Shown: positions 10,305 to 37,612 of the stretch, in pieces | Numbering within the stretch: position 1 is the stretch's first letter | Layout of the letters: every line of letters starts with the position of its first letter | Source: an uncultured SAR86 cluster bacterium | GTDB taxonomy: Bacteria; Pseudomonadota; Gammaproteobacteria; Magnimaribacterales; D2472 | Length of the DNA stretch: 64,000 nucleotides | Assembly (NCBI GenBank): GCA_902613705.1 | Contig: CACMIG010000002.1 | Coordinates: 47,207 to 111,206, forward strand | Direction: 5' to 3' | The notes under the pieces: model-generated | Told to the model about the DNA's origin: nothing | Databases searched by the model: none | The model's input: only the letters and a program-made list of their open reading frames with translations | Program-made: the position numbers and the translations under genes

Positions 10305-11093
10305 TCAGTTTTTAACTCCAAAATAATCAAGCACTGTTTTATTAATATTTGAAACATGAGAATTGGGTTCTGGTCTGTACTTTGAAATTCCATTTGAAAA
10401 ATATGTAAATCCCTTGCTATGGTGTTCACCATTTTTTACTGCTACAAATACGACCTGATCATATAATGGAATCTTAATTCCATCTATGTTTATAGTAGTT
10501 TCCTCAAATACTTCAAACGGGTATGTAAGAACAACAAATATATCCTTACCTCTGTTATCAATTTCTTCAAATAATTTTCTTTCTGAATCTACTAATATCC
10601 TTGAGAGTTTCTCTTTTGCAGCTATTGCCTCATCAGAAGACTCAAAAGAGATTAAAAAGTCTCTTGTCATTCTAGGCGATACTTCTGAATAATGTATGCC
10701 GATAAGGTCTAAAAATGCTTTATGGTCTTTCAATCTATAATAAAATTTTAAGTGTGTATATGGTTTTTGAGAAAGTCCGGTGGCAATTATAATCTCTGTG
10801 TCTTGAACACTGATAAGTTCTCCAATTAACTTGTCATATACGACTAACATCTCGAGCATAGGATCTTCGTTTTTATCAATATACCAAGTCGGATTTTTTA
10901 ATTCTTTTAAATTTACGTACGGAGAATTAAAAAAATAATGATGCTGTATATGCGCACCTGCATTTAAAAAAAGAGTTGAAAAATTTGGTTTCTTCTTTTT
11001 GAATAATGTCTTGTGAATTTCATATAAAAACATATCCAAAAATAATGCTTTTCTCCATGGCTTACCTAAGGCTTGAAATGCATATTTAATCAT
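10305..11093 (-). CDS. C-terminal half of a probable alkaline-phosphatase/phosphodiesterase-superfamily protein
   Basis: AHIQHHYF and NGEHHSKG motifs; separated from the upstream half by a 1-nt shift at a T6 run. Confidence 0.5.
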   Translation of the reverse strand: MIKYAFQALGKPWRKALFLDMFLYEIHKTLFKKKKPNFSTLFLNAGAHIQHHYFFNSPYVNLKELKNPTWYIDKNEDPMLEMLVVYDKLIGELISVQDTEIIIATGLSQKPYTHLKFYYRLKDHKAFLDLIGIHYSEVSPRMTRDFLISFESSDEAIAAKEKLSRILVDSERKLFEEIDNRGKDIFVVLTYPFEVFEETTINIDGIKIPLYDQVVFVAVKNGEHHSKGFTYFSNGISKYRPEPNSHVSNINKTVLDYFGVKN

Positions 11094-11602
11094 AAAAAAT
11101 ATTTTCTTGGATCAACCATTATAAAAAAAGCAAAAATCAAGCTCAAAATAGTTTTGAAAGTTAATCTAGATTGAGAGTTATCATTTACAGACTGAGCAAT
11201 AGCTTCAGAAATGATTTTGCTCAAAAAAGATTTATCCGATTTAGTTTGTGTCCAAGGGTCAGGAATAAAATATGAAGGGTTTTTTAGTCTATTTGCTGCA
11301 TTCATTGGACTTATTGCTCCAACATTAAAACCGGCTTTTTCAACTTTTTCAAAAAACTGTTCTTCTTTTGAATTAACAAAATCTCCAAGCCTAAATACAT
11401 TATGTTCTTCATATTCTTTTCCAGTATGAACAGACACCCATTGGATCCATGGCTCTAAATTATCATACTCAGATTCTGCCTTTGTAGTAATCAGTCCAGA
11501 TTTTAATACATGATTCATTGCTGGTAAGGAAATACCACGATCGATGTAGTATTTTACTACATCAAAATTTATTTCATTGAGCTCTAAAAGTATTAACTTC
11601 AT
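11090..11602 (-). CDS. N-terminal half of a probable alkaline-phosphatase/phosphodiesterase-superfamily protein (possible frameshift)
   Basis: LILLELNEIN first strand and EPWIQWVSVHTG, resembling the P-x-W-x-S-x-x-TG core of the NPP/AlkP fold. Confidence 0.5.
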   Translation of the reverse strand: MKLILLELNEINFDVVKYYIDRGISLPAMNHVLKSGLITTKAESEYDNLEPWIQWVSVHTGKEYEEHNVFRLGDFVNSKEEQFFEKVEKAGFNVGAISPMNAANRLKNPSYFIPDPWTQTKSDKSFLSKIISEAIAQSVNDNSQSRLTFKTILSLIFAFFIMVDPRKYFL

Positions 11603-11651: not shown

Positions 11652-12767
11652 TTAAGTATCTTTATTGACTTCATATGTATATAAATCTAAAACAATATTT
11701 TCATCATACTCGTTTTCAACTTTAAGTCGGCTATTCATGCCCATAGTTAACCTTGATTCATGGGGTAGCATAATCATTTTTTCAATTTTATCAGCAAGAT
11801 CTAAATGATCTTTGACCTTACACAAGTAACCGGATTTTGAATCATCTATTATTTCCCTACAGCCTGGAACATCTGAAGCTATTAATGGTCTACCCACAGC
11901 AGCTGCTTCCAATAGAGCTCTTGAAGTACCTTCTCTATATGATGGCAATACTATACAAGTTGCTTTATTTAAAAAAAATAAAGTATCGTTTGTTTCACCA
12001 AGATATTTTATTACTTTTTCTTTTTTCCATCCCTCAAGCTCATTTTGCTTTATTGCAGATCTATTTTCTGAGCCCATAGGTCCTAATACCTGAAAATCAA
12101 CATCTGGGAATTTTCTTTTGATAATTCTTGCAGCATCAACAAATTCTCTTATGCCTTTATCTTTAATTAATCTTCCTACGAATAAAAATTTAAGGTTCTT
12201 TTCATTCGGAAAATCACTTTGTTTGAACTTTTCTAAATCTATTCCTGATCCAGGAGTTATAGCGCATGATGAAGGCTCCACTATTTTATTATCTATAAAA
12301 ATCTTCAAATCATCCTTATTTTGGAAAAAATTTATTTGAGATGATTTAAGCGCAATTTTATATAGTCTTTTAACGATTTTTGTAAGCCAAGTGTTTGTTA
12401 TAAATGATGTCCCTAGACCAGTTATCATCGATATTGAATTTACATTAGTTAATCTAGCTGCAATTGATCCATAAATTACTGGTTTAATCGTAAATAGAAG
12501 AATATTGCTAGGTTTAAAAATGAGAAAAGTTTTTATGTAATGAAATAAGGTAATTAAATCAATTAATGGATTTATGCCTTTTCTCGATATAAATAAATTT
12601 TTAATGACGTCTACTTCTTTTTTTATTTCAAGTTCATAACCATCAAATTGAGTAAAAACAATTATCTTAAAGCCTTCTTTTTTGAGTCTTTTAATTAGAT
12701 TCATTCTAAAATTAAAGATTGTCCAAGCATAATTGGAAGAAATTAATATAACTTTATCTTTATTCAT
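11652..12767 (-). CDS. Glycosyltransferase family 4 (CapM/PglA-like)
   Basis: FTIKPVIYG, ITGLG, PGSGID, VGRLIKDKG, LPSYREG...LLEAAAVGRP, DVPGCRE. Confidence 0.92.
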   Translation of the reverse strand: MNKDKVILISSNYAWTIFNFRMNLIKRLKKEGFKIIVFTQFDGYELEIKKEVDVIKNLFISRKGINPLIDLITLFHYIKTFLIFKPSNILLFTIKPVIYGSIAARLTNVNSISMITGLGTSFITNTWLTKIVKRLYKIALKSSQINFFQNKDDLKIFIDNKIVEPSSCAITPGSGIDLEKFKQSDFPNEKNLKFLFVGRLIKDKGIREFVDAARIIKRKFPDVDFQVLGPMGSENRSAIKQNELEGWKKEKVIKYLGETNDTLFFLNKATCIVLPSYREGTSRALLEAAAVGRPLIASDVPGCREIIDDSKSGYLCKVKDHLDLADKIEKMIMLPHESRLTMGMNSRLKVENEYDENIVLDLYTYEVNKDT

Positions 12768-12819: not shown

Positions 12820-13857
12820 CTAAGTTTTTAAATTTTGAATGTACCAACCTATTGCATCATTAATACCTTTTTCTATATCGTGCGTAGGTGAATAATTTAG
12901 TTTATTAACACTTTTTGATATATTGGCCTTAGAATGCCTAATATCACCTGCTCTAAAATCTTTATAAGAGGGCTCTCCGGATATATTTATATTATTTTTA
13001 ATCAATGCTTTCTTAAGAAGAAAAAATAATTCTGTAAGAGATGTTTGATTGCCGCAAGCAACATTGTAAACATCATCTTTTGCATTACTATCAGCAATAG
13101 CAGAAAGTATGTTCATTTGAACAACATTTTCTACAAAACAGAAATCTCGACTGGTTTCACCATCACCATAAATTTCGACTTCTTCATTTTTAATAAGAAG
13201 TTTTATCCATTTTGGAATTACTGCTGCATAAGGCCCTTTAGGGTCTTGACGTGGTCCAAATACATTGAAGTATCTTAAACCAATAGACTTAAAGTCATAT
13301 GTTCTTGAAAAAACTCTAGCATATATTTCATTTACATATTTCGTAGCCGCATACGGTGAGAGAGGCTCACCTATATTCTCCTCTGTTTTAGGCAAATCAG
13401 GATGATTGCCATATACAGAACTGCTGGAGGCATAAGTAAAACTTTTGACATTAGCTAATCTTGAAGCTTCTAAAATATTTAGAAAACCAGTTATATTTGA
13501 GGAATTCGTATCTAGGGGTTGTTTAATGGAACGGGGAACAGATCCCAAGGCGGCCTGATGTGATACAAAATCAATATCCTTTACAACGTTTAGGCAATCA
13601 TCATAGTTACAAATGTCGCCATTATAAAAATTAAAATTATTCCATTCTTTTGAGGAAACATTTTTTTGGACTTCCTTTAGGTTGCGATCATGTCCAGTAG
13701 AAAAATTATCTATTCCAACAACTTGTTGATTTAATTTAAGAAGATTTTCTAAAATATTTGATCCTATAAAACCGGCTACTCCTGTTATTAACCATTTTTT
13801 TGAGTTATTTTTTAAAGATTCTTGAAGATCTTTATAGCTTGATAAAGATTTATTCAC
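12820..13857 (-). CDS. UDP-GlcNAc(A) 4-epimerase (WbpP/TviC-like)
   Basis: [46 protein letters not shown]. Confidence 0.92.
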
Positions 13858-15131
13858 AGCCTAATCACCGAATCATTCCTATCGAGCACATATTTTAAAT
13901 CATAAATAATATTGTTATTCTTTAAGAATTTACTAATTCCATCAAAACCTAGTTCTTTAAAAGAATTATGTCCAACAGCTATAATTGCTGCATCATAGTG
14001 ATTTTCGTGAGGCTTATCAATAAGCTTTAAATTATAAATTTTAGCTGCATCATTCTGATTTACTAATGGATCAAAAACATCAACGTCTATCGATTGACTA
14101 TTAAGCTCATTATAGATATCTATAATTTTGGTATTTCTTATATCAGGACAGTTTTCTTTAAAAGTAAATCCAAGAATTAAAACTTTTGCTTTTTTTATAT
14201 CAATGTTGCGATTGTTTAAATTCTTAATTAAGTTTTTAGCAACATAAATACTCATATTGTCATTAATTTTTCTTCCAGAAAGAATCATTTCAGGCGTATA
14301 TCCTTTTGCTTGTGCTTGATGGGTCAAATAATAAGGGTCAACGCCAATACAATGACCGCCAACTAACCCAGGACGAAATGAGAGAAAATTCCATTTTGAA
14401 CCTGCTGCTTGTAATACTTCCTCAGTATCTATATCTAATGTATTAAAAATCATTGCAAGTTCATTAATTAGAGCAATGTTGACATCTCTTTGAGTATTTT
14501 CTATGACCTTTGCTGCTTCCGCAACAGCTATTGATGTTGCTCTAAATGTACCTGCATCAATAATTGATTTATACAAATTGTCAATAAAAACAGAGATTTC
14601 TTCTGTTGATCCAGAGGTAACTTTAACAATATCTTTCAGCCGATGTTCTTTATCTCCTGGATTAATTCTTTCAGGGCTGTATCCAACATAAAAATCCTTG
14701 TTAAAAATAAGATTGGATCTCTTTTCTAGAATTGGAACACATATCTCTTCGGTAGCTCCAGGGTAAACAGTAGATTCATAGATGACTATGTCATTCTTAG
14801 ATAAAACTGATCCTACTGTGTTGCTTGCTTCGGTAAGCGGAGATAAATCAGGGGTTTTATCAGTATTAATTGGGGTAGGAACCGTAACAATAAAACAATT
14901 ACATTCAGACAAAATATTAATATCACATGTTAAATCTAAATGTTTTGCTTGCTCTAATTCACTTTTATTTAATTCTAAAGTTGAATCATTATGATCTTTT
15001 AATTCTTCAATACGATCTAAGTTAGTATCAAATCCAACTACATGATATTTTTTAGAAAATTCAACAGCTAAAGGCAGGCCAACATATCCGAGACCTATGA
15101 CAGCAATTTTTATTTTATTAAGATCATTCAC
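13854..15131 (-). CDS. UDP-HexNAc 6-dehydrogenase (WbpO/TviB/CapL-like)
   Basis: [55 protein letters not shown]. Confidence 0.93.
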
Positions 15132-15145
15132 TATCTAGTGTTCCC

Positions 15146-15628
15146 CTAACCTATTAATAGATCTATTTTGTTTTTACCAATATACCTTATTCTTCCAGCT
15201 TTGCTTTTTAAGTAGTTTATAACTTCTAAATAAAAAAGGGTTTCACCATTTTCAGTATTATATGAAAGATCATCAATAACTATTAGTAATCCATCTAAAC
15301 TATTAAGAAAATTGTCAAATATCTTTATCTTTGCAGTAGCTTTAGGAACCAATATTAAGCGATGAGGACTAAAAAATCCAACATGCCTAATCAAATAGAA
15401 GTAGGTAAAAATCCACAATGACCAGTGGCGTGCGCTCAAGAAAAAAACTTCAGAATTACCTCTTTTCATTCTGTTTTCCACACTAATTATCATACTCTTA
15501 AAAGATGGGATAAAGGATACTCTCCATGCTTCAGAAAAAAATCTTAATGAGTAACTTTTATTTGATTTTAAAGTTGGCCATGTATTGCAAAGAGTATTAT
15601 CGATATCAAAGATATAAGTTTTAATCAT
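15146..15628 (-). CDS. Small HAD-superfamily phosphatase
   Basis: FDIDNT motif I, FLSAR motif II, IDD motif IV; start moved to the ATG at 15628. Confidence 0.7.
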   Translation of the reverse strand: MIKTYIFDIDNTLCNTWPTLKSNKSYSLRFFSEAWRVSFIPSFKSMIISVENRMKRGNSEVFFLSARHWSLWIFTYFYLIRHVGFFSPHRLILVPKATAKIKIFDNFLNSLDGLLIVIDDLSYNTENGETLFYLEVINYLKSKAGRIRYIGKNKIDLLIG

Positions 15629-15632
15629 TAAA

Positions 15633-18017
15633 TTATAAGATTTCCTCCAAAGCCGAAACAAATATTTTCATCATATTTTCGTCACCAAGTGTTACTCTAA
15701 GGTAACCCTCTAAGTTTTCTACCTCGTTTCGGTTTCTGATAAAAATATTTTTACTTTTTAAGCTCTCCTCAACAAAATTAGGATTATTAACTTTAAAAAG
15801 AACATAATTGCCTTTACCAGCAAGGTATTCAATATTTTGATTATCAAAAAAATTAGTAACAACCTTTCTTCCCCTAGTAATAGACTCTACAAAATCATAC
15901 ATATATTTTGGATTTTTTATTGCCAAGGTACCTGCGATTTGGGCAAAAACGTCCACCTCCTTATTGTCTTTCGACAATGCAATTTTATTTGCTAATTCCT
16001 CATTAGAAATGCAGTATCCTAAGCGAACTCCAGCAAGACCAAATGCTTTAGAAAAAGTCCTCAAAATTATTACATTTGATGGAATATTTTTTACAGAAAG
16101 TGAATTCTCTCCAAATTCTACATAAGCCTCATCTATTACAAAACATGTTGTTGGAAAAGTTTCAGCTAAATTAAATAAAGTATCTCTTGAATATTCAACA
16201 CCAGTTGGATTATTTGGGTTAGTAAAAAATACAAGTTTATGCTTATCTTGTTTTAAAAAATTGGTGAAGTGTTCTATGTCTATTTCAAATGGATAAGTTA
16301 ATTTATAAGGCTTTACATCCGCAGTATATCTTGAGGCAATTGCTTTATAGTTCCCATAAGTTGGTTCAATTGTTACAACTGAATCTGTATCTTCAAGAAA
16401 TAATCTACAAATTGTTGCAATACCAGCATCAGAACCATTAAAAATAGTTAAACATTTTGGCTTGATATCCAACCATTCACCAATTGCTGATTTAAGTTTA
16501 GAGACTTGGAGATCTGGATATATGTTTAATGGTATCTCTGATAACTCTTTGAGAGCTTCTTCTTTTAATTTTGATGGAAAATCATTTGTAGATTCATTCC
16601 AATCAAGCTTTAAAACATTTGGTTCATTTTGTTTTGATTGAGATTCTGAGATTTCTAAGTAAGGCTTATATCCATCATAAGTTTTTCGAGGTAGAGGAAC
16701 TTCATTTACACTCAATATCACTGGTTTTTTACCATTCTCTAGTAATATAAAATCCTTATCTGAACAATAAAAGTTTACGTCATTAAATCTTTTGTTTAAA
16801 AGTTTTGAAAATTCATCTGCATTAAAAGATTTTTTAGATAAATATCTTATTTCTATTGAGTCTGTCCCAATAAAATGAATAATTTGATATTCGCTAATTA
16901 ATTTATCTTTATCAAGCTGTAAAATAAGCATATTTAAATCAGGATGAGTAATAACACGACCTGAAGGAAGTTCAATTTTCTCATTTATCCTACCTAGAAT
17001 ATCTGTAACTACCGTAGTATGTTTTCCACATTTGCATCTTGATTGAGGATCGCTAAGTTTTATTAAATCACCCATTTGATAATTTACAATAGGCATATAA
17101 GGGCTTTCAAAAACAGTTAAAATAGCAGAGTTATCACTTTTTGATTTCAAATCACAAGACCTCATGTTTACATGCATTACGCCATATGGACACTCTGATG
17201 CCATATGACACTCGGCAGAACCATAGACCATTGCTACAGGTGCACCAAAGACTTTTTCTAGTTTCTTTCGTTGATTAAAACTTATGCCCTCTGCATTAGG
17301 ATGAACTAATTTTGTTTTCCAATTAAGAGTAACATTTCTTTTATCAACGTAATCCGCAATCCTGAGCAATGCCGATGAAAAACCATGCAAGTATTTTGGT
17401 TTAATTAGTTCGTAAGTCCTTAAAAAATCTTCATAATGTTCGTCAGTTATCATATCTGATGCAACAAATTTACAGGTACCGGTTATTTTAGATAAACAAA
17501 AATCAAAGAAACGACTTACAAAGGAGAATTTATTTTTTCTGGCTCCGCCAACATAGATATTTTTATCAAAACGATTAATTTTGAATTGATTTAAAAATAA
17601 GTAAAAAGATATTTGACTATTTAAAAAAGACTTCGGAGACCTAATAATTTTTAATGAAACACCGGATGATCCAGAAGTATTAGATGATTTCCTCCAAATA
17701 CCCCTTTTAGTACTCCATGAATTTATATTTCTGTAAAATTTTTTTGTTATTGGATCTTCGATATTTTGTTTGCCATTATTATCAATAAGGCTTATTTTAG
17801 AAAATTCTGGATAGCTCAAAGCCTTATTAAAAATTTCATCACGTAAAATATCTTGAACTTTTTTTTGTTCTTCTAAATTATTTTCAATATTTATTCCAGT
17901 TATTTTTTCATCCTTCAAACAGGAATTAAATGTCCTACCAACAACTAAAAGAAAATAAAGGTTATATAACTGTGCCAAACTGAAAAACGGGATTAAATTT
18001 GAATTATTTATTTTCAT
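15633..18017 (-). CDS. Fusion of a CapK/PaaK-like adenylate-forming ligase and a HisC/CobD-like PLP enzyme
   Basis: N-half: TSGSSG, YGSAE, MPIVNYQMGD, ILGR. C-half: LDWNES, NPNNPTG, DEAYVEF, RTFSKAFGLAGVRLGY. Confidence 0.88.
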   Translation of the reverse strand: MKINNSNLIPFFSLAQLYNLYFLLVVGRTFNSCLKDEKITGINIENNLEEQKKVQDILRDEIFNKALSYPEFSKISLIDNNGKQNIEDPITKKFYRNINSWSTKRGIWRKSSNTSGSSGVSLKIIRSPKSFLNSQISFYLFLNQFKINRFDKNIYVGGARKNKFSFVSRFFDFCLSKITGTCKFVASDMITDEHYEDFLRTYELIKPKYLHGFSSALLRIADYVDKRNVTLNWKTKLVHPNAEGISFNQRKKLEKVFGAPVAMVYGSAECHMASECPYGVMHVNMRSCDLKSKSDNSAILTVFESPYMPIVNYQMGDLIKLSDPQSRCKCGKHTTVVTDILGRINEKIELPSGRVITHPDLNMLILQLDKDKLISEYQIIHFIGTDSIEIRYLSKKSFNADEFSKLLNKRFNDVNFYCSDKDFILLENGKKPVILSVNEVPLPRKTYDGYKPYLEISESQSKQNEPNVLKLDWNESTNDFPSKLKEEALKELSEIPLNIYPDLQVSKLKSAIGEWLDIKPKCLTIFNGSDAGIATICRLFLEDTDSVVTIEPTYGNYKAIASRYTADVKPYKLTYPFEIDIEHFTNFLKQDKHKLVFFTNPNNPTGVEYSRDTLFNLAETFPTTCFVIDEAYVEFGENSLSVKNIPSNVIILRTFSKAFGLAGVRLGYCISNEELANKIALSKDNKEVDVFAQIAGTLAIKNPKYMYDFVESITRGRKVVTNFFDNQNIEYLAGKGNYVLFKVNNPNFVEESLKSKNIFIRNRNEVENLEGYLRVTLGDENMMKIFVSALEEIL

Positions 18018-18113: not shown

Positions 18114-18935
18114 TCATGAATTTCGACCAAAAACCTTATATTTTAAAATACGTAAATAGTGTATAAATTGTAAAATCAAGTATTTATTGATAGTAATTTT
18201 ATTTTCAAGCAATAATGCGCTATATAGATTAAATCCCTTTAAATACTGTTTCAAGCCATCAATTTTTGAAATAGATGATTCATGCATTCTGTAAGAAACA
18301 AGGTTTTGATTAATTTTTGTAAACTTTTTTTCTTTCAAAGAGAGATCAATCCAAAGAAACCAATCTTCAATTGCATGGAATGTTTTGTCAGTTCTAAATT
18401 GAATATCTTTAGAGTTTTTTACAACACATGATGATAAAACTATTGGATTTATTGCAAGAGTTGCAAAAGAACTTCCAAAAAAAGTTTTAAGTATTCTATA
18501 AAAAATTGATATTCTCATTATTCCATATTTATTATTCATGGAATCAATATATTCCGCGTCACAATGAAGTAAATCTAATTCAGTATTTTTTAAATAGTCG
18601 GTCTGAATTTTTAGCTTATTCTCATTCCATATATCATCTGCGTCGAGAAATGCTATGTAATCTCCTCTAGCTTGATCAATACCAACATTCCTTGGATATG
18701 CTGGTCCACCTGAGCTATTTTTTAGGGCAATATATTTTATTCGTTTATCTTTAATGACAAAATCTTTTATTATTTTAGGAGTGCTGTCTGTCGATCCGTC
18801 ATCAATTAAAATAAGCTCCCAATTTGAGTAAGACTGAGATATAACACTCTTTATGGTTTCCTCAAGATAATCTTGCCCATTGTAAACAGGAATAATTACA
18901 CTTATAAATGGAGTTTCGCTCAAATTAACCATCAA
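18114..18935 (-). CDS. Glycosyltransferase family 2
   Basis: SVIIPVYN, IDDGSTD, RNVGI, FLDADD, EDW. Confidence 0.93.
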   Translation of the reverse strand: MMVNLSETPFISVIIPVYNGQDYLEETIKSVISQSYSNWELILIDDGSTDSTPKIIKDFVIKDKRIKYIALKNSSGGPAYPRNVGIDQARGDYIAFLDADDIWNENKLKIQTDYLKNTELDLLHCDAEYIDSMNNKYGIMRISIFYRILKTFFGSSFATLAINPIVLSSCVVKNSKDIQFRTDKTFHAIEDWFLWIDLSLKEKKFTKINQNLVSYRMHESSISKIDGLKQYLKGFNLYSALLLENKITINKYLILQFIHYLRILKYKVFGRNS

Positions 18936-19875: not shown

Positions 19876-20640
19876 TTACTTAATAATATTAACAACTTCG
19901 TGGTATGCATCTCTCATTACATCGCAATCAACCTTATAAACTAAATAGTTTGCACCCATATCTCTAAACGTCTTTAGAGTATCATGAGAGGTTGCAATCG
20001 TACCTACAGATTTTTTAGCTTGCTTTGATTTATTTATTATTTCTTGAAGATTATTTAACACCAATGGATTATTGACGTCTCCAGGAATTCCTAAAGATTT
20101 TGACAAATCAAATAGACCAACAAATATTACATCAAAGTCTTTTACTTCTAGAATCTCATCTAAATTTTCTATTGCTCCTTTACCCTCAATATTGAATACA
20201 ACTAAAGTATTTTCATTTGCTTTATCGGTCAGTGCTTTTGCATTTTTAGCATCAAAATTGCCAGCTCTGGTGTATGGAGAAAGACCCCTATCTCCCATTG
20301 GAGGATATTTAGAATATTCGATAACTCTATTAGCATCTTTTTTGGATTCAATGTTAGGAATTTGAATGCCATGAGCTCCTATATCTAACGCGTTTTGTAT
20401 AAAAGCTTTATTTATATCACCAATTCTCATTAAAGGTGATGTTCCATGCAGCTCACAAGATGAGCACATTGCTTGAGCAGTCTCAAAATTAATTGGTCCA
20501 TGCTCTTGATCAATTATTACGAAGTCTAGCCCTGCTGAGCTAAATATTTCTACATTAGTTTGCGATGGAACAACTATCCAAGTTCCAATTGTAGTTTCTC
20601 CTGAAATTAGTTTTTGTTTTAAAAAATTCTCTTTTAACAT
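19876..20640 (-). CDS. HpcH/HpaI-family class II pyruvate aldolase
   Basis: DFVIIDQEHG, ALDIGAHGIQIP, YPPMGDRG, NIE, FVGLFDLS. Confidence 0.9.
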   Translation of the reverse strand: MLKENFLKQKLISGETTIGTWIVVPSQTNVEIFSSAGLDFVIIDQEHGPINFETAQAMCSSCELHGTSPLMRIGDINKAFIQNALDIGAHGIQIPNIESKKDANRVIEYSKYPPMGDRGLSPYTRAGNFDAKNAKALTDKANENTLVVFNIEGKGAIENLDEILEVKDFDVIFVGLFDLSKSLGIPGDVNNPLVLNNLQEIINKSKQAKKSVGTIATSHDTLKTFRDMGANYLVYKVDCDVMRDAYHEVVNIIK

Positions 20641-20641
20641 C

Positions 20642-21319
20642 TTATTTTAAAATATTAGAGTTTTGCATTAATATTTGCGCAAGTTTAAAATCATACTCCG
20701 TATCAATATCTACTGCCTCAAAGGGGGAGACTTCATATAAAAAAGGATTTTTTGAAATAACGTATCTATTTTTTATCATTTGATTAATTGAAGTAATAAA
20801 AAGTGCGCCAGTGATATAGAAATAATTATCAAGAAATTGAGAATATTTATGCCAAGGTCCCCACGCATAATTTAAAGGTTGTTTTTTTTCAGAAATTATA
20901 AAATCAGTTGATTTTAGAACAGTAATAAGACCATCATGGCCATTTTTACAAATTTCATAATATTTATCGACTGCAGATTTATAAGAATTAAAAGTTGGTG
21001 AAGTTGTATGACACCAGGCTAGATTAGTTTCAGATTTCTCAGGCAAACTAGACGCAACATGTGCAATAACATCACTCCATGGAATTTCATTGTTACAGTA
21101 TTCATCATCTCTTCTAATAAACTTTATACCTTTTGATAATATTTTTTTTTCAAGTGAAATAGAGTTTGATGAAACATATATATCATCAAAAGCTTCTGAA
21201 TCTAGCAGTTGATTGATAAGCAAATCAAAAAGAGACATGTCATTAAAAAAATTCCTAAAATTTTTACTTTCGACTCTTTCAGATACGCTTTTGACCGGTA
21301 TAACTGCTACTGTTCTCAT
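20642..21319 (-). CDS. NeuA-like CMP-ulosonate cytidylyltransferase
   Basis: AVIPVKSVSERVESKN, HTTSP, DIDTEYDF. Confidence 0.85.
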   Translation of the reverse strand: MRTVAVIPVKSVSERVESKNFRNFFNDMSLFDLLINQLLDSEAFDDIYVSSNSISLEKKILSKGIKFIRRDDEYCNNEIPWSDVIAHVASSLPEKSETNLAWCHTTSPTFNSYKSAVDKYYEICKNGHDGLITVLKSTDFIISEKKQPLNYAWGPWHKYSQFLDNYFYITGALFITSINQMIKNRYVISKNPFLYEVSPFEAVDIDTEYDFKLAQILMQNSNILK

Positions 21320-21380
21320 AATATGTAATATTTTTGAGAATTATATCACTATAAAAAAAATTAATTCATTTCAAAGTGGT

Positions 21381-22040
21381 CTAGATATAGTTTATTATTT
21401 CTTTCAAGTCGAAAGCAGACTCAAATTTTTCTTTTTTTGCTAGCTCTATCATCTTTTTATCAACCGAATAACGACTAATGAATAAAAAATTTATATTAGA
21501 ATTTTCTGACGCTTCTAAGTCAGCCTCAGAATCTCCAATCATAAGAATTTTTTTATTTTTATGTTCAGAACATATATCTTTTACTAATTTATTTTTTTCA
21601 ATTGGAGAACCATAAACTGACATGAAATATTTGCCAATGCCTCTATTTTTAAAGACCATTCTAAGTTCACTTTGGTCGCTTCCTGATGCAACATATTTAT
21701 ACTTATCTTTTGTTTTCTCTAAAATTTCTACAACGCCAGCACATAATTCAGCATTATCATAAATTTTTTTGCAACGACTGCTAAAGTCTTCAATAATCTT
21801 ATTGTACAAATCTACTTGAAATGATTTATTTAGAATATTTTCAATAAAATACCTAGCATGAGAAAAACGAGAACGTCCAAAATTTTCTTTAAAATAATTA
21901 GTAAACTCCTCAATATGTTTGGTATCAAATTCACTTAATGTTTCCTGAAAAGCTTTTAATTTTAGATGAGTTGTGTCAAAGATGATTCCATCACAATCAA
22001 AGATTAATACATCATATTTATTATTATTTAGGTTATGCAT
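21381..22040 (-). CDS. HAD-superfamily hydrolase (phosphatase)
   Basis: IFDCDG, YVASG, YGSP..K, MIGDSEAD. Confidence 0.88.
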   Translation of the reverse strand: MHNLNNNKYDVLIFDCDGIIFDTTHLKLKAFQETLSEFDTKHIEEFTNYFKENFGRSRFSHARYFIENILNKSFQVDLYNKIIEDFSSRCKKIYDNAELCAGVVEILEKTKDKYKYVASGSDQSELRMVFKNRGIGKYFMSVYGSPIEKNKLVKDICSEHKNKKILMIGDSEADLEASENSNINFLFISRYSVDKKMIELAKKEKFESAFDLKEIINYI

Positions 22041-22084
22041 TTATGTGAATCAAATATTATTTTTTAATTAAGGAAGTCTAAGTT

Positions 22085-23137
22085 TTAAGAGTCTTTGAAA
22101 CAATTTTCTACGTATCTGATTTGATCTAAAACTCTTAAAGAATATCCAGCTTCATTATCGTACCAGAGAACAAGTTTTAATAAATTTCCACCAGTAACAT
22201 CAGTCCACCTTGAATCTACAACTGCTGAATGTCTATTTTTTACAAAGTCTAACGAAACTAAAGGCTCATTCATAAGATCAAAAATTTCCCATGTTTGAGT
22301 ACTCCTATATTCATTTATAATTTTATGCACTTCTTCCGTTGATGAATCTTTGTTTAGCTGAAGTGTTAAGTCAGCGCTTCCAACTATAGCAGTTGGTGTT
22401 CTATATGAGAAAGAACCAATATCATCTTCAGTTAAGCGACTTAATACCTGTGCTGTAGCAGTAATTGCTGATGTTGGTTTTGGAATTAAATTACCTATAA
22501 CTGATCGCCCTAATGCATAATGATGATATATCTCTCCTGGTACAGACCAACTACTAGAAGCCCCATCCATTAAATTTTGGTAATTAAGCCAAGGATGAAG
22601 AGTTGTAACTTGACCACACTTTATTCCAATCTTTTTATCAAGTAATTCTAATAAGGGTGCAATAGCAGTTGCATCACAAATACTTGTTGCAATGACAAAA
22701 TGATTATCAATATCAAGATTGTTTTCATTGCATCCTAATACCATAGTAAAATCAACATCATGATCAGGCGCATGGGTAACAAAAACTCTTTTGCAAATAT
22801 CTTTTTCAATTAAGACTTTTGAGTCTATAAGATTTTGTTTGATGCCAGTTGCTTCAATAACATAATCTACACCTGAATCTTTCCAAGGAACATCATAAAT
22901 TGAGTTGCAGTTCGAGACAGCTATTTTCTTTCCACTTGATAACTCAAGATTATTATCAGAAACTTTAATAGGTTCTTCTAAAGATCCATAAATAGTATCA
23001 TAATTCAACGTGTAACAAATATTCCCAATATCTGGATTTGCTTCATTGATTGCGCATATTTCAATTTCTTCAATTTCAAGAGAGCGTCTAAAAATCGCTC
23101 TACCAATTCTGCCTAATCCATTTATTCCTATTTTCAT
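22085..23137 (-). CDS. Divergent GAPDH/erythrose-4-phosphate-dehydrogenase-family enzyme
   Basis: GINGLGRIGR, VIEATG and WYDNE are present; the catalytic loop reads SICDATAIAP instead of ASCTTNCLAP. Confidence 0.85.
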   Translation of the reverse strand: MKIGINGLGRIGRAIFRRSLEIEEIEICAINEANPDIGNICYTLNYDTIYGSLEEPIKVSDNNLELSSGKKIAVSNCNSIYDVPWKDSGVDYVIEATGIKQNLIDSKVLIEKDICKRVFVTHAPDHDVDFTMVLGCNENNLDIDNHFVIATSICDATAIAPLLELLDKKIGIKCGQVTTLHPWLNYQNLMDGASSSWSVPGEIYHHYALGRSVIGNLIPKPTSAITATAQVLSRLTEDDIGSFSYRTPTAIVGSADLTLQLNKDSSTEEVHKIINEYRSTQTWEIFDLMNEPLVSLDFVKNRHSAVVDSRWTDVTGGNLLKLVLWYDNEAGYSLRVLDQIRYVENCFKDS

Positions 23138-23154
23138 TTTTCCTTCTTAAAGTT

Positions 23155-24135
23155 TCAAACTATTCTATTTTGTTTTTGAATACCATCCAATGCATTCAGT
23201 GACATCTTAGAGGCTTTATATCGCATTTCCTCATAACTATCTGGAGAATAATATGCTGTATGGGGATTTATAATGATTCTATCAGAAAATTCTGAATTTA
23301 AATCAATCCATGATGATAGAAATATATTTTGCTTATCGATCTCAGGAGGCTCCTCTGGAAGAACATCTAGACCAACAGCACCAATTCTGCCAGATAGAAT
23401 TCCTTTGGCTAGACAATCATATGAGGATAAGAGACCACCTCTTGCTGTATTTATTAATATACTTCCAGTCTTCATAGAGTTTATAAAATCATCATTAATC
23501 ATCCCTTCTGTCTCAGACGATAATGGTACATGAACAGAAATAATATCAGAAGTACCCAATAGCTCTTTTAAACTATCATGTCGAGTTGCATCTAATACTT
23601 TTTCATACCCAGCATCCACATAAGGATCATAAAAATTTATATCCCCAATGATGTTTTTCATTTTTAAAGCTAATGAGCTTCCTATCCTGCCAGCTCCAAC
23701 TAATCCTAGTTTTAAACTTTTAAGTCTTAATGACTGATGATTGATATTTTCTTGCCACGGATTTTTTAAATTCGGCTTAATGACCAAACTTCTTGCTTTA
23801 TTATTATAGTATCCTATGCAACGACTTAAATTCATAATCATTGCTAGCGCTGTGTCACTAACCTCATCAACCCCATAATCTGGATTATTAAAAACCTTAA
23901 TTCCTTTATTATTGCAATAATTTATGTCAATGTTATCAAAGCCAACGCCGTATCTAACAATAGCTTTAACATTTGGAAAGTCTTTTAAACTTTCTTCATC
24001 TACTAAAAAATGCCAAACCAATAATACCTCTACAGATTTTTTATCAACATTCTTATCCAAAAAAGTACATAATTTATTTCCTAAAATATTTTTTTCAAGA
24101 CTAGGTTCACTTACATAATCAGTTAGATAAATCAT
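23155..24135 (-). CDS. D-2-hydroxyacid dehydrogenase (CtBP-like)
   Basis: RYGVGFDNID, PDYGVDEV, GAGRIG, INTARG, LDV..EP, PHTAYYS. Confidence 0.9.
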   Translation of the reverse strand: MIYLTDYVSEPSLEKNILGNKLCTFLDKNVDKKSVEVLLVWHFLVDEESLKDFPNVKAIVRYGVGFDNIDINYCNNKGIKVFNNPDYGVDEVSDTALAMIMNLSRCIGYYNNKARSLVIKPNLKNPWQENINHQSLRLKSLKLGLVGAGRIGSSLALKMKNIIGDINFYDPYVDAGYEKVLDATRHDSLKELLGTSDIISVHVPLSSETEGMINDDFINSMKTGSILINTARGGLLSSYDCLAKGILSGRIGAVGLDVLPEEPPEIDKQNIFLSSWIDLNSEFSDRIIINPHTAYYSPDSYEEMRYKASKMSLNALDGIQKQNRIV

Positions 24136-33338: not shown

Positions 33339-34082
33339 TTAATCATCTTTCATTAGGAATTGAACTTTCTCGAGATCTTCTTTGGTATCAACTGCTGATG
33401 TATTAAAACTGGTGTGTATCATTTTTACCTTGTAGCCATTTTCTAATATTCTCATCATGTCAACGGATTCAATAATTTCTAGAGAAGTTGGTTCCATATT
33501 TTGATAAGCAAACAAGAATTCTCTTCTGAACGGAATAATACATACCTGTTTTTTCATTGGCACTTTCTCGGATAAATGTCGAGTGGGAATTGGCTCACGA
33601 GAAAAGTACATAGCATTATTCTCTTTATCAAGTACAACTTTTATACAGTTTCTGTCTTCAAATTCTTCTTGTGAATTAATATCAGCAACTAAATTAACAA
33701 CATTAATGGAGCTATCATTAATCATAGGCTGAACTGCTTCTGATATCATAAGTGGATTTGTCATTGGCTCATCGCCCTGCACCATTATGATAATATCGTA
33801 TTGTATTTTATCTTGATCTTCTAAAATATTCAGTGCTTCAGCAGCTCTATCAGATGCTCTTTCATGATTCTTGCTTGTCATAACAGCTTGCCCACCAATA
33901 CTTTCAACATAGTCAAAAATAATATCATCGCAGGTTGCAACAATTGTTTTAGTGAGTAGCTCACACTTCTTAACCCTTTCATATACATGTCCAATCATAG
34001 GCTTATCATTAATTCTTGCCATAGGTTTACCTGGAAACCTTGAACTTCCCATTCTTGCTGGAATGATTGCTAATATATTCAT
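33339..34082 (-). CDS. KdsB-like CMP-ulosonate cytidylyltransferase
   Basis: IIPARMGSSRFPGKP, VQGDEP, MYFSREPIP, AVDT.EDL. Confidence 0.9.
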   Translation of the reverse strand: MNILAIIPARMGSSRFPGKPMARINDKPMIGHVYERVKKCELLTKTIVATCDDIIFDYVESIGGQAVMTSKNHERASDRAAEALNILEDQDKIQYDIIIMVQGDEPMTNPLMISEAVQPMINDSSINVVNLVADINSQEEFEDRNCIKVVLDKENNAMYFSREPIPTRHLSEKVPMKKQVCIIPFRREFLFAYQNMEPTSLEIIESVDMMRILENGYKVKMIHTSFNTSAVDTKEDLEKVQFLMKDD

Positions 34083-34100
34083 ACTCTAATCAAACTACTC

Positions 34101-35081
34101 TTAGTTTTTTTTACTAACAACCATGATATGCGAACTTGAGCATGTGTCTGTAATAGCTTTTTGCATTGAAAGCTTATCCTCCTCTGATGCTAACTTTAGA
34201 AAACTTTTCCAAAACTTATCTTCTATATGCATGCTACCATTGCTCATGATATCAATGTCTAATTTACCCGGAGTTGTAATTTCTAAAGAACTCAAACCAA
34301 CTCTATTTAAGAGAATAGGTATTGATTTTGGGTTTAAAAAATTTAAATGGTGTGGCGGAGATACTGACTTTGAATTGTTCCAAAGAGTTCTTATATCAAC
34401 ACCTGTCCCAGAAAGAGTTGTAAAAATAAATAAATCATTAGGCTCCATTACGTCATACAAACTTTTTAGAAATAGCTGAGGAGAATGTAGGTGTTCAAAT
34501 AGTTCAAAACTTACAAATACTTTTCTGCCATTTGGTAAATCAGTCTTAGTTACCGATTCTAAGAACTTCTCGATAACGGTCAAATTTTTGTCTCTACAGA
34601 TTTGAGCTAATCTAGGACCTGGCTCTATAACTACTGATTTCTTGTTGGTAAGAAGTTCTATTTCTTCACTAAAGATTCCATAACCTCCCCCAATATCAAC
34701 TACAACATAATCTTTGTCAGTCAACCATCGATCAATGGTTTTCTTAACAAGCTTTGCCTTTGGTTTCCATAAAAGCTCTCTTCTAGATTCAGCAGTTTCT
34801 TTATAGAAAGTAGTTGCCCAGTATTCAGCCGAAGGTGCTTCTGTGTAATATTTATCAAATGAGGACGCTATTGGTCTGGGATTTACAAATAAAGTTAAAC
34901 ATTCTTTGCATTCTTCATAATCAAATCCTGATTTATTAAATGAGAATTCGCCATCATTGCCGCAAGCAGGACATTTTATTGACTCTCTTTCACAGTTTCC
35001 AAAATATGTTTTAGTATCTTTTATCGTTAAAGCTAAATACTCATCAAATATATGTTGGGGTCTTATATCTTCTTCTTTCAT
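34101..35081 (-). CDS. Class I SAM-dependent methyltransferase with N-terminal zinc ribbon
   Basis: CPAC...CKEC, DIGGGYG, FELFEHL. Confidence 0.85.
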   Translation of the reverse strand: MKEEDIRPQHIFDEYLALTIKDTKTYFGNCERESIKCPACGNDGEFSFNKSGFDYEECKECLTLFVNPRPIASSFDKYYTEAPSAEYWATTFYKETAESRRELLWKPKAKLVKKTIDRWLTDKDYVVVDIGGGYGIFSEEIELLTNKKSVVIEPGPRLAQICRDKNLTVIEKFLESVTKTDLPNGRKVFVSFELFEHLHSPQLFLKSLYDVMEPNDLFIFTTLSGTGVDIRTLWNNSKSVSPPHHLNFLNPKSIPILLNRVGLSSLEITTPGKLDIDIMSNGSMHIEDKFWKSFLKLASEEDKLSMQKAITDTCSSSHIMVVSKKN

Positions 35082-35147
35082 TAAAATACCTAATTAAGGT
35101 ACTATTTTACAGTCTTTAATATTAAATTGAGAGAAATATGATTAATA

Positions 35148-35927
35148 TTATTTTTTTATAATTCTTTGATTGACATATATGACGTCAACCCAATCTGTTC
35201 TTCCGTTCATAGGGTTCTTAGAAATATGACTGATGTCATAAATACTGAAATTATATTCATGAAGGTATTTTTCAATATCTGAGAATGATAAGCTCTTTTC
35301 ATAAAAATCAAAAAACATGAGTTCTGTTAAAACTACATCTACGTTTCCTAGATGTTTTCCAAGGCCATCTAAAACCTCTACTTCATGGCCCTGAGTATCA
35401 ATTTTTAAAAAATCAATATGTGAATTTAAATTGAGAGATTCTATGTATTCGTCTAATCTAATGACCCTAACTTTCCTATTTTGGTTAAGTGAATTAATGT
35501 AATTTTGTACTTCAGCTTCACTCATTTGCTTAAGATTCTCTAGCTTTATTGAGTCACTACTATTTATATTTATTTTATTAAATCCTGATACGCCAGAGTT
35601 GATGTCATGAGTGTAAAAGGTTTGATTTTTTGAAGAAATATTACCTGCAGCGCACATGTTTATGTGTATTTTTCCTTTATTAAAATTTGATGCTGTTTCC
35701 TTTATACTTTCATAACACTCTTCTTGAGGTTCAAAGCAATGGATTGATGAATCTGGCCACCAACTTTTAAAATCATATATGGAACTACCATTATTAGAAC
35801 CAACATCAAAAATGCATGGATTATTTTTCTTTATCAGATTCTTTAAAGTTTTTTCAGTATCCCAATTATTTATATACTCAGAAGTACGTTTTTCATTTGA
35901 ACCTTGATTCTTGGGTATTATTTTCAT
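35148..35927 (-). CDS. FkbM-family methyltransferase
   Basis: FDVGSNNG, CFEP, FLKIDTQGHE. Confidence 0.9.
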   Translation of the reverse strand: MKIIPKNQGSNEKRTSEYINNWDTEKTLKNLIKKNNPCIFDVGSNNGSSIYDFKSWWPDSSIHCFEPQEECYESIKETASNFNKGKIHINMCAAGNISSKNQTFYTHDINSGVSGFNKININSSDSIKLENLKQMSEAEVQNYINSLNQNRKVRVIRLDEYIESLNLNSHIDFLKIDTQGHEVEVLDGLGKHLGNVDVVLTELMFFDFYEKSLSFSDIEKYLHEYNFSIYDISHISKNPMNGRTDWVDVIYVNQRIIKK

Positions 35928-35941
35928 AATTAATCGTGCAT

Positions 35942-36703
35942 CTAATTATCTTTATAATCTGCTTGCGATCTCAACATCACAGAATCCATAGAAAATGCAA
36001 TAAATTGATATCCTTCGTCTATGCGGGTTTGAAGTTCTTTATAGGAAGCTTCAACTATATGGATGCCTAATGGAATTTTTTTTGCTCTCGTTAAATTAAA
36101 AATTTTATCAATAGCATTTAAAAACTCGCTTGAATAAAATTGGGCTGTTTTACCAATAGATGCAGATAAATCATACGGCCCGATAATTACTGCGTCTAGT
36201 CCGTCTACATCAAGAATTTCATCAATATTCTCTATACCCTCGGTGGTTTCAATCATTGCTACTAATAATGGAGACTGAGCCTCATCTTGATATTCTTTAA
36301 ATCGACCGCCAAAGAGATTTGCTCTATTGAAAGCAACCCCTCTTTTACCGGATGGCGGCCAACAACAATTCTGACGAATGCTTTCAAGTTGAGAGGCAGA
36401 TTCTATCATTGGAACAATAACTCCGCCTGCTCCAGCATCTAAAGCCTCTTTGCAATCTTTTGGGCTTCCTTCAGATATTCTTACAAGTGGAAGTGTATTA
36501 CCAAGCTCTAATGCTCTAAATATATCAGGCAGTTGATGAAGAGACATTGAGCCATGCTCCATATCTACAGCAACCCAATCATAACCTGAAGAACCCATAA
36601 TTTCAGCAACAGAAGAGTTAGGTATTTGTATCCAGCTACCGACTGACTGATTGCCAGATTTTAATTTTTTTCTTATTGTTTCAATTGCTTTAGCTCTATT
36701 CAT
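35942..36703 (-). CDS. HpcH/HpaI-family class II pyruvate aldolase (second copy)
   Basis: DWVAVDMEHG, ALDAGAGGVIVPMI, MIE, IGPYDLSAS. Confidence 0.9.
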   Translation of the reverse strand: MNRAKAIETIRKKLKSGNQSVGSWIQIPNSSVAEIMGSSGYDWVAVDMEHGSMSLHQLPDIFRALELGNTLPLVRISEGSPKDCKEALDAGAGGVIVPMIESASQLESIRQNCCWPPSGKRGVAFNRANLFGGRFKEYQDEAQSPLLVAMIETTEGIENIDEILDVDGLDAVIIGPYDLSASIGKTAQFYSSEFLNAIDKIFNLTRAKKIPLGIHIVEASYKELQTRIDEGYQFIAFSMDSVMLRSQADYKDN

Positions 36704-36732
36704 AAGACACCATAAAATAATCGTAAAATCTA

Positions 36733-37608: not shown

Positions 37609-37612
37609 AAAA

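Follow-up and report, generated by a model that had tools for sequence, protein, structure and literature searches.

An uncultured SAR86 cluster bacterium carries, within a large glycan island, a gene that joins a PaaK/CapK-like adenylate-forming ligase to a HisC-like pyridoxal phosphate (PLP) enzyme in a single polypeptide. The open reading frame (ORF) occupies 15633..18017 on the minus strand of the window, by which we mean the whole stretch of 64,000 nucleotides analysed here (positions 47,207 to 111,206 of contig CACMIG010000002.1, assembly GCA_902613705.1), and encodes 794 aa in one uninterrupted frame, with a divergent ligase at residues 1 to ~440 and an intact PLP enzyme at residues ~456 to 794. 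The genes of this region are all on the minus strand, and the fusion is followed by a gene for a small phosphatase of the HAD superfamily and then by genes for the synthesis of an N-acetylhexosaminuronic acid (HexNAcA). On balance we favor an interpretation in which a phosphorylated amine would be made by transamination, linked as an amide to the carboxyl group of HexNAcA by the ligase, and then relieved of its phosphate by the HAD enzyme. We see roughly an even chance that the protein represents an undescribed bifunctional class, in which a uronate amide ligase is fused to the PLP transaminase that makes its amine and is accompanied by a dedicated mini-HAD. The identities of the domains, their intact catalytic motifs, the conserved triad of enzymes, the association with uronic acid genes and the distinctness from histidine biosynthesis are established by the observations that follow.

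The fusion is not an assembly artefact, a possibility raised by an earlier, sequence-only reading of this DNA, because it occurs as a single frame in 15 metagenome loci and because an independently assembled Logan contig crosses the domain junction. A metagenome scan recovered 17 related loci in Joint Genome Institute (JGI) data, and in 15 of the 17, at 42-100% identity, there is one open frame of 774-801 aa; L023 is cut at the start of its contig and L025 at the end, and L027 has a stand-alone ligase of 416 aa. The Logan contig (1428 nt, from an independent marine run) covers 16275-17702 with 38 substitutions and no gap, and no joints or indels were reported in four runs. Marine metatranscriptome contigs of 155 and 172 nt (coded run X16) are identical to the part of the PLP domain within 16153..16480, a hint that the fusion is transcribed, with carry-over of DNA also possible.

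The fusion family is rare. A protein search of 5.8 billion clusters found 17 full-length clusters at 90% identity (35-92% identical to the query) and five more distant fusions of the same two domain types (26-31% identity, 72-76% coverage), or ~22 in total. The joined architecture and its motifs are intact and invariant across 18 sequences that are 34-92% identical to the query, and among the data searched here the fusion is seen in marine metagenomes only. None of 60 related genomes contains it, their matches being of HisC type only and confined to residues 431-794 at no more than 32% identity; nor did two scans of species-representative genomes, one with the single protein and one with an alignment, return any relative. 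Its absence from all 60 relatives makes this a gene of the variable genome. A single large glycan island, set between pdxH-infC-rplT-pheST and pgsA-uvrC, takes up the window from ~10 kb to 62 kb.

The N-terminal domain (16698..18017, minus strand) is assigned, from PaaK matches, invariant motifs and profile-profile homology, to a divergent branch of the PaaK/CapK-like adenylate-forming ligases of the ANL superfamily. No Pfam family matched it at E values up to 1 in the local library. NCBIfam matches were led by TIGR02304, 'F390 synthetase-related' (8.9e-14, 51.3 bits against a cut-off of 251.9), followed by FlxY (2.9e-9), BagE/FevW (6.7e-8) and haloarchaeal PaaK (8.8e-4), all far under their cut-offs. 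The single sequence matched the solved phenylacetate-CoA ligase 9s3l (1.8e-7), and a profile built from 13 N-domain sequences matched 9s3l at 9.5e-19, 4r1l at 1.9e-12, AjiA1 (6wuq) at 6.2e-7 and a PaaK-like ligase (6siw) at 1.5e-6, the alignments to these PDB entries spanning profile positions ~194-359 only. AjiA1 and 6siw are enzymes that we take to couple adenylates without CoA. Nearly the whole domain is covered when its alignment is compared by hhalign with six stand-alone proteins that carry PF27533, named CapK_C in the Atlas (99.9% probability, E 1.1e-36, 381 columns). In precomputed Pfam lists PF27533 is assigned to the distant fusions P0021-P0024 and to P0072-P0077, whereas the close homologues P0003-P0019 have PF00155 only; in the nearest Atlas clusters, 24-54% of members bear CapK_C, which we treat as a lead only.

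Invariant in the 18 sequences are TSGSSG (residues 114-119), YGSAE (265-269), GD (316-317), CxCG (328-331), GR (342-343) and GKK (429-431). The core motifs of ANL enzymes are a P-loop of the form (T/S)SG(S/T)(S/T)G, YGxxE, (Y/F)xxGD, a GR hinge and a C-terminal catalytic lysine in GK, and the ANL motifs of the N-domain align with the matching motifs of CapK_C-bearing proteins. A moderately hydrophobic and conserved helix lies at the N terminus (residues ~8-34). An AlphaFold2 model of the fusion, made from the 18-sequence alignment, has a mean predicted local distance difference test (pLDDT) score of 81.5, with values mostly of 75-93 over residues 41-430 of the ligase domain, a predicted template-modelling (pTM) score of 0.50 and a disordered linker at residues 440-455.

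Beyond the fusions the ligase belongs to a very large assemblage. An exhaustive search with the ligase profile returned 14,381 representative clusters at E of 1e-3 or below, 7,256 at 1e-10 or below and 228 at 1e-30 or below, the bulk being proteins of ~430-460 aa; only P0006, P0019, P0080 and fragments scored as fusions do. From the 150 relatives listed, 19 were scanned with Pfam: 16 that fall outside the size range of the bulk (430-460 aa), and P0086, P0090 and P0091, which stand alone and showed no Pfam family. An aminotransferase domain was present on P0080 and P0083, and among these same 19, drawn from the best 150 of 14,381, three are joined to glycosyltransferases (GTs): P0171 (ligase plus GT4), P0176 (ligase plus GT2) and P0179 (GT4 plus ligase). 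Eleven further proteins of 875-967 aa (P0085, P0087-P0089, P0099, P0112, P0127, P0153, P0180, P0188 and P0199) have two to three stretches matched by the profile, with AMP-binding found in eight of the 11, and are probably tandem double ligases.

The C-terminal domain (15636..16652, minus strand) has the fold-type I architecture of HisC, as judged by Pfam, NCBIfam, alignment to 1fg3 and the model. Pfam places Aminotran_1_2 (PF00155) on residues 460-793 at 5.7e-47, and the NCBIfam hisC model TIGR01141 gives 2.2e-73 and 247.2 bits (249.7 bits in the genome search), under its cut-off of 276.55. The modelled domain matches HisC structures by Foldseek (E 6.3e-25, with TMt 0.79 to 8bj1) and superposes on 8bj4 by VIA-align with Z 38.1 and a root-mean-square deviation (rmsd) of 2.2 A over 341 aligned residues. 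The Schiff-base lysine K657 (within SKAFGLAG), N603, D629, Y632 and R665 are invariant in the 18 sequences, and in the alignment to 1fg3 the counterparts of Y20, Y55, D85, Y110, K214, R322 and R335 of Escherichia coli HisC are conserved, the last two as R761 and R774. In HisC we take R322 and R335 to be the arginines that hold the substrate phosphate, and D85 and Y110 to contact the imidazole. That both arginines are kept argues for a phosphorylated substrate. These results, with the ORF itself and the profile and motif evidence for its N-terminal half, bear out the sequence-only description of a 794-aa ORF that joins a CapK/PaaK-like domain to an intact HisC-like PLP domain.

Phylogeny and genome content together indicate that the PLP domain is not a housekeeping HisC and that it is set apart from histidine biosynthesis. 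In a tree of 67 PLP domains, one branch with 99% SH-aLRT support splits the set into 29 and 38 rows. The 29 are all 18 close and five distant ANL fusions together with P0038, P0028 and P0034, as well as P0026, P0027 and P0042; the 38 include every HisC that is fused to imidazoleglycerol-phosphate dehydratase (IGPD) or histidinol dehydrogenase, along with the relatives' own HisC. P0038 is a triple fusion of ATPgrasp_TupA, Aminotran_1_2 and HAD, and P0028 and P0034 join PLP and HAD domains, the architectures of P0038 and P0028 having been confirmed. In the organism's own genome (1.0 Mb, 82% complete) the PLP domain is the sole match to the hisC family, searches for IGPD and histidinol dehydrogenase found neither, and His_biosynth gives only a partial match of 19.3 bits. 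IGPD was detected in four of 24 genomes of the same genus but not in any of the six whose completeness is 90% or higher, and histidine biosynthesis seems to be patchy in this genus of ~1 Mb genomes. A HisC-family match at E of 1e-20 or below was present in eight of 36 genomes, with weaker partial matches in three more.

Directly downstream of the fusion, at 15146..15628 on the minus strand, is the gene for a capless HAD-superfamily phosphatase of 160 aa, identified by motifs, fold matches and conserved position. Its start is most likely the ATG at 15628, 4 nt after the TAA of the fusion, rather than at 15661, and the gene is predicted from this arrangement to be translationally coupled to the fusion. 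HAD enzymes are marked by four motifs, DxDxT, S/T, K and DD; here motif I is D8-x-D10-x-T12, motif II S65, motif III K100 and motif IV D119-D120, all invariant or nearly so in 11 homologues of 33-87% identity. Profile matches are weak and under curated cut-offs (Acid_phosphat_B, E 0.032; TIGR01662, 0.086; HAD_2, 0.18). In a Foldseek search the AlphaFold model of the protein (pLDDT 83.6) was matched best by HAD phosphatases (E 5e-4 to 2e-2, TM 0.42-0.56, rmsd 4-9 A), including deoxyribonucleotidases, class C acid phosphatases, phosphoserine phosphatases, the T4 Pnkp phosphatase and YrbI. The gene is directly downstream of the fusion in all 13 loci with room for it (L011, L012, L013, L015, L016, L018, L019, L020, L021, L022, L023, L024 and L026); L014, L017 and L025 end too early to show it.

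In L027 (1193-3182) the ligase that stands alone, with 36% identity to the N-domain, is itself followed by a 248-aa PHP-domain phosphoesterase, and the contig ends before a PLP gene could come into view. NCBIfam matches of this phosphoesterase include the HisJ histidinol-phosphatase family (3e-8), and it is predicted to be a phosphatase of non-homologous fold in the place of the HAD.

The next gene downstream (13854..15131, minus strand) encodes a UDP-N-acetylglucosamine 6-dehydrogenase that qualifies as a TviB equivalog (NF011729, 603.9 bits against a cut-off of 592), and is the predicted source of the HexNAcA carboxyl group. Linkage was assessed by blastp of the ORFs of each locus against those of the window: a TviB-like dehydrogenase of 47-100% identity lies no more than three genes from the fusion in nine of the nine loci with enough flank (L011, L013, L015, L018, L019, L021, L022, L024 and L026). 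It is followed in the window by a TviC-like UDP-GlcNAcA 4-epimerase of the short-chain dehydrogenase/reductase type (12820..13857, minus strand; best family NF011728, 449.9 bits, cut-off 760), which recurs at no less than 49% identity in six loci, and by a GT4 glycosyltransferase (11652..12767, minus strand, by family match) that is a candidate HexNAcA transferase. Homologues of the GT4 are found at 50-57% identity in L014, L015, L018, L019 and L021, and in L014 a TviC-like fragment and the GT4 lie upstream of the fusion. The order given in the earlier reading, a HAD phosphatase and then TviB- and TviC-like genes and a GT4, is thus upheld by motifs and fold for the first and by NF011729, NF011728 and the GT4 family for the others.

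We hypothesize that the three enzymes, on two polypeptides, form a module for modifying N-acetylhexosaminuronic acid at its C6 carboxyl in a surface glycan, the acceptor being N-acetylgalactosaminuronic acid (GalNAcA) or N-acetylglucosaminuronic acid (GlcNAcA) made by the adjacent TviB/TviC-like genes. The PLP domain would transaminate a 2-oxo phosphoester of central metabolism to a primary amine with a phosphate handle, most simply dihydroxyacetone phosphate (DHAP) to serinol phosphate, or else 3-phosphohydroxypyruvate to phosphoserine. The PaaK/CapK-like domain would then adenylate the uronic carboxylate with ATP, and attack by the amine would yield the amide, from which the small HAD phosphatase would strip the phosphate. 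Fusion of the first two activities suggests that the amine is handed over between domains, with the orientation of the domains left unfixed by the model (pTM 0.50). Ligation would probably occur not at the level of the UDP-sugar but once the sugar is part of a lipid-linked or growing glycan, to judge from analogy with the Cj1438 and VpsH proteins discussed below and from the hydrophobic N-terminal helix.

This scheme borrows its logic from the glucuronamide pathway of the Campylobacter jejuni HS:2 capsule, whose Cj1438 we take to be, like the ligase relatives P0171, P0176 and P0179, a glycosyltransferase joined to an amidoligase. In the published passages on that pathway (PMC11800397), which agree with its description in the sequence-only reading, Cj1437 transaminates DHAP to (S)-serinol phosphate, Cj1436 decarboxylates L-serine phosphate to ethanolamine phosphate, the C-terminal domain of Cj1438 amidates the C6 carboxylate of glucuronic acid (GlcA) after its incorporation into the chain, and the HAD phosphatase Cj1435 takes off the phosphate. 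The window likewise combines, in one locus, a predicted PLP enzyme for a phospho-amine that keeps the phosphate-binding arginines, a ligase expected to use ATP, a HAD phosphatase and, next to them, a uronic acid dehydrogenase as the predicted source of uronic acid. The two systems differ in that the ligase is adenylate-forming and PaaK/CapK-like here and an ATP-grasp enzyme there (no ATP-grasp family appeared among the window ORFs scanned with Pfam), that the PLP enzyme is fused to the ligase here and free there, that the HAD here is a capless protein of 160 aa, and that the sugar is HexNAcA rather than GlcA; the likeness is one of family and of described logic.

For the ligase the closest functional precedent is Vibrio cholerae VpsH, a PaaK/CapK-like protein which, according to the relevant passages of a recent paper (mBio 2026, PMC13463779), is needed genetically for the addition of glycine to N-acetylgulosaminuronic acid (GulNAcA) in the Vibrio polysaccharide. 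Deletion of vpsH in a vpsI-deletion background traps the glycine-free BPP-Glc-GulNAcA disaccharide, and the authors note the resemblance of VpsH to phenylacetate-CoA ligase and CapK-like proteins and call the activation chemistry open (PMC13463779, same passages). VpsH thus belongs to the superfamily of the N-domain and, in that account, attaches an amine to a HexNAcA carboxyl (that of L-GulNAcA) while the sugar is part of a lipid-linked disaccharide. Unlike the fusion it stands alone, uses a free amino acid and has neither PLP partner nor phosphatase, and the two are alike by family rather than by direct sequence comparison. Since VpsH is already linked to glycine addition, the fusion would add a variant and not a new kind of chemistry, and the expectation that it might give the CapK family a concrete function has been partly overtaken by the VpsH genetics. 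The most economical description of the module would be Campylobacter logic combined with a VpsH-type ligase.

Other systems share parts of the scheme. The Staphylococcus aureus type 1 capsule locus carries a CapK ligase-like gene together with HexNAcA genes and a GT4, and to our knowledge a role of CapK in taurine addition is unproven. Taurine is amide-linked to every fourth GalNAcA of the type 1 capsular polysaccharide (PMC12043029, in the passage on its structure), as the earlier reading had also cited. The S. aureus polymer, which we compare by its description, is therefore alike in having an amide-linked amine on a HexNAcA-type sugar, but taurine requires neither a PLP step nor dephosphorylation. 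Related by sequence are P0038, P0028 and P0034, whose PLP domains are the closest relatives from outside the ANL fusions (28-31% identity, on the same side of the 99% branch). P0038 (925 aa, 54 member sequences) has ligase, PLP enzyme and phosphatase in one chain, and would be a one-chain version of the Campylobacter-type uronamide toolkit; these are, however, uncharacterised proteins with an ATP-grasp ligase or none. In cobalamin synthesis, CobD and CbiB also combine a HisC-family PLP enzyme that makes an amino-alcohol phosphate with ATP-dependent amide linkage to a carboxylate, although there the acceptor is cobyric acid, the ligase is of another family and the phosphate is kept and used. 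In the literature searched, which left most subscription journals outside, we found no CapK-HisC fusion and no ANL-type ligase that uses a phospho-amine, and a CapK-like ligase was tied to uronic acid amidation in PMC13463779 only; the passages on glycans of one review (PMC3210612) mention no amino-alcohol amide of GalNAcA.

The amidation interpretation came through all the in-silico tests that were able to break it, and on sequence evidence it is partly supported. In its favor are the conserved triad (13 of 13 loci), the linkage to TviB (nine of nine), the clade of the PLP domain and the fusions of related ligases to glycosyltransferases. For the amine, an amino alcohol (serinol phosphate or ethanolamine phosphate) and a phospho-amino acid both fit, as do GalNAcA and GlcNAcA for the acceptor, on either a UDP-sugar or a lipid-linked glycan. 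Several observations count against the interpretation. The N-domain reaches the cut-off of no curated family (at best 51.3 of 251.9 bits), and both fold-search lists of the full-length model are filled by PLP enzymes and so bear on the C-terminal half only; the low pTM leaves the geometry between the domains uncertain, and the HAD assignment rests on motifs and on weak fold matches at rmsd 4-9 A. The PLP domain scores 166.5 bits with the CobD decarboxylase model, which leaves decarboxylation possible, and it retains all mapped substrate residues of HisC, including the equivalents of D85 and Y110, so that sequence alone leaves imidazole-acetol phosphate as a possible substrate. The tree that separates it from histidine enzymes was a quick maximum-likelihood search, midpoint-rooted, of 67 domains picked by similarity to the query. 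In addition, the most divergent loci (L022, L024 and L026) have epimerases of 30-33% identity only, and the DegT, RmlA and RmlB genes of the window could supply an amino sugar as acceptor for a ligation of opposite polarity.

The alternative that survives best retains the module and its chemistry and changes the amine, so that the product would be a serine, hydroxythreonine or ethanolamine amide and not a serinol amide; we consider this unlikely, though it carries real weight. O-phospho-L-serine could be made from 3-phosphohydroxypyruvate, 4-phosphohydroxy-L-threonine through an upstream Epd-like/PdxB-like pair, and ethanolamine phosphate by decarboxylation of phosphoserine. A dehydrogenase resembling phosphoglycerate dehydrogenase (PGDH) is indeed found directly upstream of the fusion in L022 and L024, a 2-hydroxyacid dehydrogenase (TIGR01327, 7.2e-60) accompanied by a HAD-IA hydrolase, and a PGDH-like gene (23155..24135; TIGR01327, 3.1e-49) lies six genes upstream in the window, beside a gene resembling those for glyceraldehyde-3-phosphate dehydrogenase (GAPDH) and Epd. 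Such dehydrogenases are, however, missing from L015, L018, L019, L021 and L026, all of which have the full set of fusion, HAD and TviB, and those of the window fall within a cytidylyltransferase and aldolase block that resembles a separate pathway. The CobD score would suit decarboxylation, for which Cj1436 offers a precedent as a phosphoserine decarboxylase of the same superfamily (PMC11800397, passages cited above), but the domain fits the model of HisC better than that of CobD (247.2 against 166.5 bits). In L012 and L013 the gene directly upstream of the fusion encodes instead an oxidase of the flavin adenine dinucleotide (FAD) type, related to L-2-hydroxyglutarate oxidase (209 bits) and type-2 glycerol-3-phosphate oxidase (143 bits). 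Both this oxidase and the PGDH-like enzyme of L022 and L024 would yield the 2-oxo compound that a transaminase needs, the PLP step of our favored scheme included, which favors transamination over decarboxylation as a hint only.

It is distinctly less probable, in our view, that the chemistry runs with opposite polarity, the ANL domain adenylating an amino acid made by the PLP domain (e.g. phosphoserine) and moving it to an amino sugar to give an N-aminoacyl sugar, with the uronic acid genes as mere neighbors in the cluster. ANL enzymes usually activate small acids, DegT aminotransferases are encoded close by in the window, L017, L019 and L026, and N-aminoacyl amino sugars such as Qui3N(N-acetyl-L-alanyl) occur in marine bacteria according to passages of a review (PMC3210612). 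Against this, the fetched DNA of L015, L018, L021, L022 and L024 has no DegT-family gene, whereas a TviB-like gene is present in all nine flanked loci, and VpsH, in the passages cited above, adds its amine to a uronic acid. We regard as improbable a further alternative in which the ligase activates some unrelated small acid, as acyl-CoA or acyl-adenylate, so that the glycan can be O- or N-acylated, while the PLP domain is an aminotransferase for a sugar or an amino acid that shares no intermediate with it and the fusion serves co-expression only. The best-named relatives of the ligase are phenylacetate-CoA ligases and no curated family assigns its substrate, as such a scenario would allow; but retention of the fusion from 34% to 100% identity and the fixed phosphatase partner argue for a shared intermediate, neither an acyl carrier protein nor an acyltransferase is a conserved neighbor of the fusion, and the PLP domain is of the HisC type and not of the DegT sugar-aminotransferase type. 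That the PLP domain is a genuine histidinol-phosphate aminotransferase for histidine, or that the module attaches histidinol phosphate, is very improbable despite its being the only HisC-family match in its genome, with all mapped active-site residues kept and a hisC score just 29 bits under the cut-off, given that a genome in which neither IGPD nor histidinol dehydrogenase was found (82% complete) would not make imidazole-acetol phosphate, that genomes of the same genus with IGPD carry a separate HisC-type match of ~368 aa, that the domain stands apart from histidine-pathway HisC in the tree, and that the gene sits in a variable glycan island and is missing from all 60 relatives searched.

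Several other genes accompany the module. A GT2 glycosyltransferase (18114..18935, minus strand, by family match) is directly upstream of the fusion with a spacer of 96 nt; in most related loci a GT2 is found directly or at most two genes upstream, and one also precedes the stand-alone ligase of L027. Downstream of the GT4, a single gene has been split by loss of 1 nt into the window ORFs 11090..11602 and 10305..11093, as judged against the 99.9%-identical metagenome contig L011, in which the gene is intact (16416-17714). The whole ORF of 432 aa (10305..11602, minus strand) matched nothing in Pfam, NCBIfam or PDB; the Atlas provides a lead in 'alkaline phosphatase family', with PF01663 in 13% of members. 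It accompanies the module in L011, L022, L024 and L026, the homologues in the last three being 44-45% identical. The same ORF was considered as a Wzy polymerase and rejected, as it has one hydrophobic segment only.

Further upstream, a cassette at 19876..24135 (minus strand) encodes the PGDH/PdxB-like 2-hydroxyacid dehydrogenase and GAPDH/Epd-like dehydrogenase mentioned above, a HAD-IA hydrolase, a cytidylyltransferase (CTP_transf_3) and an HpcH-type aldolase, and a second cassette at 33339..38593 (minus strand) encodes CTP_transf_3, two methyltransferases, an HpcH aldolase, an epimerase and a 2-hydroxyacid dehydrogenase. Both look like routes to keto-deoxy acids activated with cytidine monophosphate (CMP) by way of a class II pyruvate aldolase and not a KdsA/NeuB-type synthase. 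In L012 and L013 an FAA-hydrolase-family protein takes the place of the aldolase. The upstream block of PGDH-like, GAPDH-like, HAD, cytidylyltransferase and aldolase genes was rejected as a general part of the module, being with the fusion in L011-L013 only. Elsewhere in the window, 52446..54332 (minus strand) encodes a 628-aa protein in which a NeuB-type nonulosonic acid synthase (with SAF domain) is joined to a xylose-isomerase-like TIM barrel (AP_endonuc_2), and a separate AP_endonuc_2 protein is encoded at 47770..48612. Three ORFs of the glycan island, 39943..42615 (890 aa), 44414..46249 (611 aa) and 38593..39921 (442 aa), all on the minus strand, are without a Pfam match at E up to 1e-5; in L015 and L022 the fusion is flanked by homologues of the 890-aa ORF (49% identity).

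When uronic acids carry amide decorations, the surface glycans of bacteria change in charge and antigenicity. The enzymes responsible are known biochemically for the Campylobacter ATP-grasp route only, and for CapK/VpsH-type ligases the evidence is genetic. The fusion described here ties such a ligase covalently to the enzyme that probably makes its amine, with a fixed phosphatase partner, and so narrows the candidate substrates. If our interpretation is correct, it would be the first case of a Campylobacter-type route, in which a phospho-amine is made, ligated and then dephosphorylated, to be built on a CapK/VpsH-type ligase, and would offer a soluble and tractable system for studying the chemistry of the large CapK_C family, whose profile is matched by 14,381 representative clusters. 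It would also mean that very small marine genomes hold, in their variable glycan islands, genes of the uronic-acid-amidation type, with which these streamlined bacteria may turn the acidic HexNAcA residues of a surface glycan into neutral serinol (or serine) amides.

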